A stretch of DNA of 64,000 bases from an uncultured Chloroflexia bacterium (GTDB taxonomy: Bacteria; Chloroflexota; Dehalococcoidia; DSTF01; JALHUB01): the NCBI GenBank assembly GCA_963703345.1, contig OY969814.1, positions 1,824,001 through 1,888,000 on the forward strand, written 5' to 3'. The translations under genes and the position numbers were made by a program. Below, one piece after another: positions 20,775 to 25,538 of this stretch. Position 1 is the stretch's first letter. The number at the start of each line of letters is the position of its first letter. Below the pieces are notes generated by a model that saw only the letters and a list, made by a program, of their open reading frames with translations, did not search any database and had not been told where the DNA came from.

Positions 20775-23138
20775 ATGCGTGAAGCTGAAACCGTCCAATC
20801 GTCAATTGGCGAAGCGATGCTGGATGTCGATGGCGCGACCGTGGCGGCCGTGCGCCTGGACCCGTTGCGCTCGTACGTCGACGTGCCCGAGCTGCTGAAG
20901 GAGGTCATCGACCGCGCCGACGAATCGGCCTGGCGGGCGATCGTCGAGCGGATCGACTACACGTACGACTGCCTCGATGGCGCCCTGACGCCTCTTCGCG
21001 AGGAGACGGAGCTCGCCGAGATGCTGCGGAGCGAACTGGCGGCGGGCAAGAAGCTGCTCCTCAAGCCGAATCTCGTCGTCCCCGTCTGCATCGATCCGCG
21101 GGAGCACGGGCGCGGGCTGGGCTACGCCACCTGCACGGCCTGGCCCTTTGTCGCGGCCGTCATGCGCTGGCTGCACGACCGGATGGACGTCTCCTATCAT
21201 CAGATGGCGCTGGGCGAGGCGGCAACGTCGATGGCTGCGGCGGCCGGCTATGGGACGCGCCTTTTCGGCCGGCCGGTCACGCGTGAGGCGGTCATGGAAG
21301 GGCGCATCGACGAGTTCTACGGCGGCTGGGGCTTCTACTTCGTGCGCAAGTACCTGGCAGAATCGCACGACCCATCGCACCGGGACAACCCGATGCGCGG
21401 CTACGACGACAGCGTCGCCGGGAACTACCTGCCGCCGGGCCGCGCGATGGACCGCCTGCCGGTCTACGATCTGAACCGCATCCAGGACGTTCCGGAGCGC
21501 GGGCGTCGGGTGCCGGTGCCGGATGGGGCGAACTTCGAGGCGATAACGCTGCACAAGGCGATCGTCGGCGGCGAGCCGTCGGACCCCGCAGACCGTCGCG
21601 ACTATCCGGGCTGCGTGCTGCTCAGCCTGCCCAAGATGAAGGTGCACAACTTCGCCCTCTTCACCAACGCCATCAAGAACCTGGGCATCGGCCTCTACCC
21701 GATGGAAGCGGCGTCGGACTCCGACCCGGCGAGCACGCGCTGGCTGTACAGCTCGCCGCAACTGGACGTTCCGGGGATGAAGAGCCGCCTGCCGCACCAG
21801 GTGTGGACGGCATCGGTGGACGACCAGACCGGCCGGCCGCATTCCGTCAGGCGGACGGCGGGCATCAACGGGACGATGGTGGACATCATCAAGGCCGTCC
21901 AGTCGCAGGGCGTGCGCGTGCTGAGCATCGTCGACGCCATAGAAACGATCAACATCGATCACACGCTCGACGCGCCGGCGATTCGTGTCCCCGAGGGCTT
22001 CGTCTTCGCCGGCCTCGACGTGGTCGCCCTCGACGTGCTTTGCGCTCGCTACATGTTCAACATGCTGCCGACGACGGAATCGCGCCGGCTCGTGGCGGAG
22101 GGCAAGGCGCAGTCGGAGTGGCTGCAACGGGTGCCGCTGCCGGTGGTCGATGGGCAGAACATCGCTACGGCGGAGGGCTATGACTCGCCGTTGTCGCGCC
22201 ACGTCCTCTTCGAGTACGCGGAAGGAAGGGGCATCGGCGGGCAGGCGTATCACGTCGTCGGCCGGGAAATGTGGCAGGGAGGTCGCCTGGCGTCCGTGCA
22301 GGGGCACCTGGGCAAAGTCGTCGACCGCGAGTTCTCCGAAGTTACGACAAGCACTCTCTACTACGACCAGTTGAAGCTGCTGTGGGACCTGCAGACCACG
22401 GTGATGGGCTACGCTGCCGCGAACGACGCCCTCACCGGCTCCAGCTATCGGCGGCAGTTCCTCGATGCGTTCGACGAGAACGGCGACGGCGTTATCGACT
22501 ACGAAGAGATGGGCCGAAAGGGCATCGTCGATTTTCAGTTGCACGCGGCGGCTTACGGCGTCCACCTGATGGGCAGCGAGGAGTACGGTATGCTGCGCGG
22601 CTCCTTCGCCTTGCGGGCGAACGCGCTGCGCTGGGCCGACGCGGCCTTCAACCCGGACGGGCTGGACTTCCTCAAAGAGTATGTTGACAGCTCGTCGGCG
22701 CTGGTGGGACTGACGCTGTCGCAGATGGAGATCGAGGGCGCTGATCCGTTCGTCCCGTCGATGACGTGGGGCAAGGGCAAGTGGCCGAGCATGCAGATGG
22801 CCCGCTTCATGGCCGTCGGGTCGTTGCTCTACGGCCTCGGCTTCCCCTTCATGACGACGATGGATTCGATATACGGATTCGCCTTCCAGTACGCCGACAA
22901 GGCGTTCAACGGCAGCAGCTACACGGGCGATCTGGAGACGATGAGCGATCCGACTTCGACGGCGGCGGTGGAGTATGTGCAGGCGGTTTCCGCCGGCGCC
23001 GAGCGGCTTCCCTTCCTGCTGTACGTGCCGCAGGGCTTCGGGCAGGTGCTTGGGAAGCCGATTCCGAACGTGGAGGAGACGGCCGACCCGCGCAAGATGC
23101 TGCGGGTGGAGTTCGCCGGCGGCAAGGAGATCTGGTAA
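20775..23138 (+). CDS. Large DUF362-domain protein with an EF-hand
   Basis: LLKPNLV, LPKMKVH, TNAIKNLGIG, DVVALD; EF-hand loop DENGDGVIDYEE; GGAGG RBS. Confidence 0.8.
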   Translation: MREAETVQSSIGEAMLDVDGATVAAVRLDPLRSYVDVPELLKEVIDRADESAWRAIVERIDYTYDCLDGALTPLREETELAEMLRSELAAGKKLLLKPNLVVPVCIDPREHGRGLGYATCTAWPFVAAVMRWLHDRMDVSYHQMALGEAATSMAAAAGYGTRLFGRPVTREAVMEGRIDEFYGGWGFYFVRKYLAESHDPSHRDNPMRGYDDSVAGNYLPPGRAMDRLPVYDLNRIQDVPERGRRVPVPDGANFEAITLHKAIVGGEPSDPADRRDYPGCVLLSLPKMKVHNFALFTNAIKNLGIGLYPMEAASDSDPASTRWLYSSPQLDVPGMKSRLPHQVWTASVDDQTGRPHSVRRTAGINGTMVDIIKAVQSQGVRVLSIVDAIETINIDHTLDAPAIRVPEGFVFAGLDVVALDVLCARYMFNMLPTTESRRLVAEGKAQSEWLQRVPLPVVDGQNIATAEGYDSPLSRHVLFEYAEGRGIGGQAYHVVGREMWQGGRLASVQGHLGKVVDREFSEVTTSTLYYDQLKLLWDLQTTVMGYAAANDALTGSSYRRQFLDAFDENGDGVIDYEEMGRKGIVDFQLHAAAYGVHLMGSEEYGMLRGSFALRANALRWADAAFNPDGLDFLKEYVDSSSALVGLTLSQMEIEGADPFVPSMTWGKGKWPSMQMARFMAVGSLLYGLGFPFMTTMDSIYGFAFQYADKAFNGSSYTGDLETMSDPTSTAAVEYVQAVSAGAERLPFLLYVPQGFGQVLGKPIPNVEETADPRKMLRVEFAGGKEIW

Positions 23139-23214: not shown

Positions 23215-23243
23215 TTGACAGCCTCGGAGGTCGGGGCTAGACT
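23215..23243 (+). promoter_or_regulatory. Sigma70-type promoter
   Basis: TTGACA-17 nt-TAGACT. Confidence 0.75.
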
Positions 23244-23294
23244 GAAGGTGAGCCCGGGATGGGATTCCCAATCCGAAAGGAGGAGGTAAGTCTC

Positions 23295-23354
23295 ATGGTA
23301 GAGAACCGGGTTCTCTGGGGGGTGTGGCAGGTTGACTGTTGGGCCCTACCCTGA
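23295..23354 (+). CDS. 19-aa peptide MVENRVLWGVWQVDCWALP
   Basis: ATG follows AAAGGAGGAGGT at normal spacing, downstream of a consensus promoter; too short for the ORF track. Confidence 0.55.
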   Translation: MVENRVLWGVWQVDCWALP

Positions 23355-23485
23355 AAGGGTAGGGCGAAACGGTCGCCGAGTTGGCCCCGTCGCATCAGTG
23401 CTTTGATGGCCACCGTTCTGAATAGGGCGGATCGGCCAGGCGCTGGGGGGCCAGCCCTCGTGGGGGCCTCTCGGGATGAAGATTG

Positions 23486-23520
23486 CAAGAGCCGCCTTTA
23501 CCGGGCGGCTCTTGTCTTTG
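23486..23520 (+). terminator. Intrinsic terminator, possibly bidirectional
   Basis: CAAGAGCCGCC-TTTACCG-GGCGGCTCTTG followed by TCTTTG. Confidence 0.75.
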
Positions 23521-25369: not shown

Positions 25370-25406
25370 CAAAGAGAAAAGGTCGTCCCGTTGCGGTCCG
25401 ACCTTT
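25370..25406 (-). terminator. Terminator of the riboswitch expression platform
   Basis: Minus strand AAAGGTCG-13 nt-CGACCTTT followed by TCTCTTT, immediately after the aptamer. Confidence 0.75.
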
Positions 25407-25407
25407 C

Positions 25408-25525
25408 GCACGCCTACGAGGTTAGCTGACGGGTTAGGGCTGAAAGGTTGCCCCTCCCGGTAACCCGGGATTAACCCCTCTTCTGGTTCCCCCGTCCCCG
25501 AACAAGCTCGGGCGTTCGGCGGTTA
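25408..25525 (-). ncRNA. c-di-AMP riboswitch (ydaO/yuaA class)
   Basis: Minus strand CGCCGAA...CGGGGGAACCA...GGGGTTAATC...AGGGG...CCCTAACCCGTCAGCTAACCTCGTAGGCG matches the ydaO-yuaA consensus. Confidence 0.92.
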
Positions 25526-25538
25526 GGTTGTCAATGTC

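Follow-up and report, generated by a model that had tools for sequence, protein, structure and literature searches.

We found that a locus on the forward strand of the window, the 64,000-nucleotide stretch of DNA from an uncultured Chloroflexia bacterium that we analysed, is a stand-alone small RNA gene joining a micro-ORF to a covarying 3' structure. Its product, here called the GxWQVD RNA, matches no database family, has homologues, and shows covariation, and the original prediction of an undescribed, structured RNA with a selected and presumably translated ORF is thereby upheld. The gene is single-copy in its 2.28-Mb genome; a second match there to a Shine-Dalgarno sequence with WQID turned out to be the start of a long ORF. 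As had been claimed, the transcript is self-contained and has no same-strand gene downstream, the next gene, for a GT2 glycosyltransferase (PF13632), being convergent.

The promoter, ribosome-binding site, ORF, 3' region and terminator all carry the motifs that the original prediction had quoted for them, in the places given. A consensus scan locates a sigma70-type promoter, TTGACA-17-TAGACT, at 23215-23243, from which transcription would start at about 23249-23250. A 5' leader (23250-23287) contains the Shine-Dalgarno sequence AAAGGAGGAGGT at 23276-23287, and the micro-ORF MVENRVLWGVWQVDCWALP, 19 codons long, runs from an ATG at 23295 to 23354. After a further 130 nt comes an intrinsic terminator of 13 bp with a weak U tract (23485-23520, stem 23485-23515), recognised by scan, by folding and in relatives; its position would also serve the convergent gene. 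Taken singly, neither signal exceeds chance, with one promoter found in 3 kb against 0.7 expected and one terminator against 1.7. Across the family, TTGAC stands 60-110 nt 5' of the start in 143 of 160 loci, while a control window has it in 4 of 160. Among 13 family-level relatives the terminator has 25 double changes, and it was counted in 151 of 164 loci, a tally without a shuffled control. Where GGAGG and ATG are both present, the ATG is in frame in 143 of 144 loci; our call of Shine-Dalgarno and start was lenient, and the 165 of 165 loci "with a start" are not taken as evidence.

The family is widespread in Chloroflexota, with at least 165 distinct loci. Thirteen chance loci recognised by eye (10 non-Chloroflexota records, L097, L071 and L201), exact duplicates and loci lacking the GxWQVD pattern were left out of this count, and the unpublished genome G045 (locus L051), on which no claim depends by itself, contributes a single row both to the counts and to alignment A4. 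Homologues, which the original prediction had left to be sought, were recovered across the phylum by blastn and by profile searches. Of 61 genomes in the order, 27 had blastn matches, G000 being one of them and a few of the hits being short and due to chance; a pattern of Shine-Dalgarno, start and GxWQVD occurred in 45 of 301 genomes of the class, against 5 matches in 4 genomes for the reversed control; and a sequence-only profile recovered 31 of 149 phylum genomes, one of them false on inspection. When all species were scanned with the pattern, at least 110 records titled Chloroflexota were among the matches listed, including Dehalococcoidia, Thermomicrobiales, Sphaerobacteraceae and Chloroflexia; the 10 non-Chloroflexota records among the matches listed look like chance inside unrelated sequence.

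Many of the Chloroflexota families searched yielded no GxWQVD RNA. In the class, five genomes that are small and nearly complete (families f51, f19 and f18) had no match to the pattern, and the profile matched none of seven genomes of f51. In Actinomycetota, the phylum of an Actinoplanes record, the profile matched 1 of 141 genomes, which we judged to be chance. The sole viral-contig match (L192, 2189 bases) is followed by a chromosomal phosphoribosyltransferase (PRTase) paralogue and is probably host DNA. Two genomes, G016 and G017, carry two copies on different contigs (L016 and L031 versus L019, and L029 versus L013); each is 5-7% contaminated and may be a strain mixture.

Database searches agreed with the absence of a known family. 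Rfam, searched at the gathering threshold and at E<=10, gave at best 24 bits against a cut-off of 55, covering the terminator only. Pfam and NCBIfam returned no match for ten peptide forms of 20-37 aa, PDB sequences none for one 37-aa form, and the ESM Atlas likewise none for one 37-aa form, a blank that is uninformative; plasmids and phages gave no blastn match. The original prediction was right to set the RNA apart from tmRNA, SRP and RNase P, as the genome's RNase P, large SRP and tmRNA all lie elsewhere, above cut-off, and equally from 6S RNA, since there is neither an RF00013 match nor a rod with a central bubble. Literature searches for the peptide motif GVWQVD, or WQVD in Chloroflexota, met no description of the element outside supplements and subscription papers, and neither did searches on Chloroflexi or Dehalococcoid small ORFs and structured RNA motifs. 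Searches by term within PMC11109978, PMC8632094 and bioRxiv 10.64898/2026.10.21.760802 turned up no description either; their supplements could list it.

The peptide is the first of the two conserved parts. Codon tallies define a core, [R/H]-x-x-aromatic/aliphatic-G-x-W-Q-V-D, encoded at 23307-23336 of the plus strand, within the consensus M-x(1-20)-[R/H]-x-x-[W/F/L/Y/I]-G-[V/R/I/K]-W-Q-V-D. Judged by its codons, this core is under selection at the level of amino acids, because 46 of 47 matching genomes keep TGG-CAR-GTN-GAY with third positions free (CAA or CAG, any Val codon, GAC or GAT). Such agreement is expected by chance in about 1 in 16 per match, with related genomes not independent, and the reversed-pattern control gave no matches. 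A profile search that imposes no codons added only mild variants of the core, namely WQID, WQTD, FQVD, LQVD, CVW and VVW. The N-terminus is mostly basic. At one locus, L221 (105-182, plus strand), two copies of the core stand in tandem, and the second is spaced as usual from the hairpin described below. In family f95 (L081, L095, L112, L205-L218) there are forms of 37 aa, lengthened at the N-terminus by an Arg-rich stretch and at the other end by a read-through tail.

Both ends of the peptide vary. The distance from start to Asp ranges from 11 to 31 residues, being 13 in 91 of 165 peptides and shorter in only 3; the stop codon lies at Asp+1 in 23 loci, at Asp+2 in 93, and is lost in 49. All eight same-genus relatives end at 15 aa, with a stop at or next to 23340-42, and the four closest have TGA where the window has TGG. 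The 19-aa length and third Trp of the window are thus, from this comparison, a stop-loss form. Calling the peptide a Trp-rich 19-mer, as was done at first, was therefore misleading, the usual product having 13-15 aa, and the UGA at a hairpin apex that had drawn attention is atypical. Selenocysteine recoding of that apical UGA was dropped by eye, the UGA not being conserved there, and a hammerhead-like core was weighed by eye and likewise dropped.

The second conserved part is the RNA structure. The RNA folds with z = -5.7, none of 200 shuffles being as good; the reverse strand also reaches z = -4.8. Immediately after the peptide core, 6 nt past the Asp codon, lies hairpin P1 (23343-23365; GCCCU...AGGGC), supported by conserved spacing and covariation. 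It contains the upper GCCC/GGGC hairpin first read by eye, which covaries and is real. A closed 3' domain (23377-23473) follows, in which P2 pairs CGAG (23377-80) and GGCCCC (23383-88) with GGGGCC (23463-68) and CUCG (23470-73) and encloses P2a, a variable long hairpin at about 23396-23445 assigned by eye and from folds, and P3, a small hairpin at about 23446-59; P2 and P3 rest on covariation. In 47 loci of the M[R/K]L[H/Q] type, P1, P2 and P3 have 90.5% of cells paired and 81 double changes, and in 32 loci (RxxWG type plus the window's family) 88.2% and 46, in each case with none of 500 shuffles as good; for P1, about 99% of alignment cells are paired. Slid controls fall to 35-54%. The structures were drawn from the same alignments, and the pairing counts lean in their favour.

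The remaining pairings of the original prediction were examined one by one in 13 family-level sequences, with mixed results. The UCC-GAAA-GGA hairpin (23272-81), which overlaps the Shine-Dalgarno sequence, is paired in 39 of 39 cells and is invariant, hence uninformative. The hairpin by the AUG is paired in 94 of 104 cells, within coding sequence; its proposed 1-nt loop cannot form, and the fold uses a 3-nt loop. The 5'-3' helix is paired in 74 of 91 cells with a single double change and competes with the closing stem. The enclosing stem GUUGGCCCC/GGGGCCAGC, to which the single-sequence fold gives a probability of 0.84, gives way to P2: it is paired in 81 of 117 cells, against 78 of 78 for GGCCCC at 23383 with GGGGCC at 23463. 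The GCCGA/UCGGC pseudoknot, paired in 28 of 65 cells, is not conserved.

Metatranscriptomes hint that the RNA is abundant and is trimmed as far as P2. Three soil runs from two studies contain relatives that are about 89-92% identical. In run X2, one 200-nt contig covers 23300-23476 at a word depth of 528 and ends in 23-24 nt of poly(A) at the foot of P2, so that 23475-23476 (plus strand) is a possible trimmed 3' end, marked by this one contig of a relative. Run X1, which comes from the study that gave X2, has a depth-5 contig extending into the terminator. Flanking genes are uncovered in both runs, and contigs without flank cover prove nothing alone. Run X3, from the second study, has genes and gap alike at a depth of about 10, as DNA or read-through would give. 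Assembled contigs cannot prove RNA ends, strand or level.

What links the two parts is their spacing. Among 52 loci collected without any hairpin requirement, P1 begins 6 or 7 nt past the Asp codon in all 52. As read from these alignments, selection fixes the position of the core relative to P1, and both ends of the peptide float. Because the core-to-P1 place is fixed while the peptide ends vary, we favour, tentatively and at a little under an even chance, arrest of the ribosome in cis by the nascent peptide on a stand-alone RNA. A chain of about 13 residues would roughly bridge the peptidyl-transferase centre and the tunnel constriction, and with an Asp or Val codon in the P site, P1 at about +10 to +14 is near the mRNA entry. 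Together with the start-to-Asp minimum of 13 residues and its three exceptions, this geometry fits a chain that reaches the constriction when P1 is at the mRNA entry. The micro-ORF would be translated from its strong Shine-Dalgarno sequence, the ribosome would be stalled at about the Asp codon by its nascent GxWQVD peptide, P1 sitting at the mRNA entry, and a stable processed RNA ending at the foot of P2 would remain. The output may be ribosome storage, or control of the RNA's own stability and with it of whatever binds the 3' domain. No fixed downstream gene accounts for it.

Short arrest peptides have precedent, as the 14-aa PepNL can arrest ribosomes according to the accessible part of PMC11890864. 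There, most known arrest peptides are described as upstream ORFs that control a downstream gene. In that same partial account the short ORFs of PepNL and TnaC resemble ours in their 13-15-aa length, strong start, conserved C-terminal residues and RNA structure right after them. The likeness of a short ORF with conserved C-terminal residues holds here by codon selection, for an ORF that is presumably translated. ErmBL and the RAPP-type peptides are further short-ORF arrest peptides; ours has neither RAPP nor Pro-stop motifs. Unlike these systems, the GxWQVD RNA has a different motif, a stop position that is not conserved, a large conserved closed 3' domain, an arrest that is so far a proposal, and no fixed co-directional downstream gene (37 of 134 loci are linked to one gene, and many have a convergent gene).

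Some of the evidence counts against arrest. The fixed spacing could be that of a stop codon and a protective hairpin kept by ancestry; tolerance at both peptide ends fits a short binding motif equally well; and the tandem core of L221 suits a free peptide at least as well. The main rival, only somewhat less probable than arrest, is that a released peptide of 13-15 aa binds a conserved partner, or its own RNA, through GxWQVD, the structure stabilising the mRNA or having a separate job. The coding selection applies to this reading just as well, and so do the tandem core and the Arg-rich extensions of family f95. Peptides of this length have precedents among dual-function sRNAs, where those of 14-15 aa act in trans, SpfP on CRP and also peTrpL, as stated in the available portion of PMC12310071. 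This reading leaves the 6-7 nt between core and hairpin unexplained when the stop is lost, and the sole candidate partner that we checked, the PRTase paralogue, does not co-occur with the RNA.

In the accessible portion of PMC12310071, the dual-function sRNAs Spot 42/SpfP (15 aa), rnTrpL/peTrpL (14 aa) and SR1/SR1P resemble the GxWQVD RNA in having their own promoter and terminator, a size of a few hundred nucleotides, and a small ORF with structured RNA. An independent transcript with a small ORF is also what this locus offers, the contigs giving a hint of it. In contrast to those sRNAs, with which it has no sequence similarity, the GxWQVD RNA spans several classes of a phylum, and its core is tied to a hairpin at fixed spacing. 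The 3' domain alignments reveal no conserved single-stranded seed, and in a short blastn search of the genome no complement stood out, the best having E 0.47. The GxWQVD RNA is thus an undescribed family that fits neither group as defined: it is not placed among the upstream-ORF arrest peptides because the downstream-gene test fails, nor among dual-function sRNAs because no base-pairing seed or target emerged.

Neighbouring genes, picked automatically at 134 loci and read by eye, vary, many loci having a convergent downstream gene. In this genome the upstream gene on the same strand is that at 20775-23138, which adjoins the RNA across the genus; its product, a DUF362 protein of 787 aa, belongs to no NCBIfam family and looks EF-hand-like over residues 560-580. 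Upstream of the glycosyltransferase gene, on the minus strand, lies a c-di-AMP riboswitch (RF00379, 87 bits; 25398-25531). The one recurrent partner is a pyrE-like PRTase gene, which follows the terminator directly in 37 of the 134 loci, often only 5-25 nt past the U tract, and in related families a dehydrogenase-PRTase pair flanks the RNA. This would suit a leader-peptide attenuator of that gene in several Dehalococcoidia lineages, orphaned elsewhere, a reading to which we give little credence: the gene is absent downstream in the other 97 loci, many of them with a convergent gene, and no conserved antiterminator was seen by eye. Furthermore, the gene falls below every NCBIfam pyrE cut-off, and a canonical pyrE lies elsewhere in this genome.

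Here, the paralogue keeps its upstream dehydrogenase neighbour with no RNA between them, the RNA lying elsewhere, and when 20 regions upstream of the paralogue were taken from other families, the RNA was absent from all of them. Some families have the paralogue but yielded no RNA, and others yielded the RNA but no paralogue. Since the two are unlinked here and each occurs without the other, the GxWQVD RNA is not simply a leader of the PRTase gene, and the paralogue was rejected as an obligatory partner for want of co-occurrence. The paralogue itself (G000:C1:2027910-2028530, L262; L015:1767-2429) is widespread in Chloroflexota. By eye it is without what we take to be the usual basic catalytic loop, and from its sequence it is possibly a non-enzymatic regulator.

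A functional substitute for 6S RNA, binding RNA polymerase and with translation as a layer of control, is comparably improbable. Actinobacterial Ms1 is such a polymerase-binding RNA. Like 6S RNA (RF00013) and Ms1, the GxWQVD RNA is a stand-alone structured RNA; it is apparently abundant, no 6S RNA was found in its genome, and it rarely shares a genome with one: among the same 149 genomes, 6S occurs in 35, the GxWQVD RNA in 30, and both in 1. This split tracks lineages, so that its Fisher p of 0.003 is overstated, the genomes not being independent, and 85 of the 149 genomes have neither RNA; other substitutes may exist in these. In contrast to 6S RNA and Ms1, the GxWQVD RNA has no Rfam match, a branched fold instead of a rod with a central bubble, and an ORF under strong coding selection.

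Two last suggestions of the original prediction have faded and now seem very improbable. Stand-alone precursors of RiPPs exist, and an invariant short core with Trp, once duplicated, could belong to the precursor of a RiPP or a signal peptide whose modifying enzymes are encoded at another site; no tailoring, modifying or export gene recurs beside the 134 loci by eye, the peptide has no leader, the ten longer forms drew a blank in NCBIfam and Pfam, and the conserved RNA structure would be left unexplained. A type I toxin mRNA or a sensor of Trp starvation, which a structured mRNA with a partly sequestered ribosome-binding site, possible 5'-3' pairing and one or two Trp codons might suggest, is just as doubtful. 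The toxin mRNAs hok, aapA and ibs do have short ORFs in folded mRNAs with possible end-to-end pairing, whereas the GxWQVD peptide is not hydrophobic (on an 11-residue window, hydropathy exceeds 1.6 in 1 of 165 peptides, and no membrane helix is seen), its gene is a single chromosomal copy with no match in plasmids or phages, the one viral contig itself precedes a chromosomal PRTase gene, and a consensus scan of the minus strand found no promoter or terminator for an antitoxin. Attenuators of the trpL type likewise combine promoter, short Trp-containing ORF, hairpins and terminator; in contrast to these, the GxWQVD RNA has no tandem Trp codons, no operon downstream and no antiterminator that we could see, and its Trp is single up to the Asp in 97 of 165 peptides; in weak profile hits, Phe or Leu takes its place.

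In conclusion, a frame of 13-15 residues that is near-invariant across several classes indicates a conserved function that has so far been missed. The ORF is shorter than gene callers usually report, and the RNA-motif surveys we checked include little of this lineage. Speculatively, and we consider it unlikely as a whole, arrest in cis would make the GxWQVD RNA a phylum-wide housekeeping RNA: it would recruit a ribosome through its near-perfect Shine-Dalgarno sequence, lock it by means of GxWQVD and P1, and then endure in trimmed form as a particle of ribosome and RNA, with another factor docked on the 3' domain. Such an RNA would be a storage or translation-sensing device, mostly of Chloroflexota lineages in which no 6S RNA was found, with no regulated downstream gene. 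That it represents a new kind of ribosome-capturing RNA is an idea we hold with equal reserve. If the peptide acts in trans, its six-residue motif points to an unknown conserved target; if arrest is true, ribosome stalling would have a new use, in a structured RNA that stands alone.
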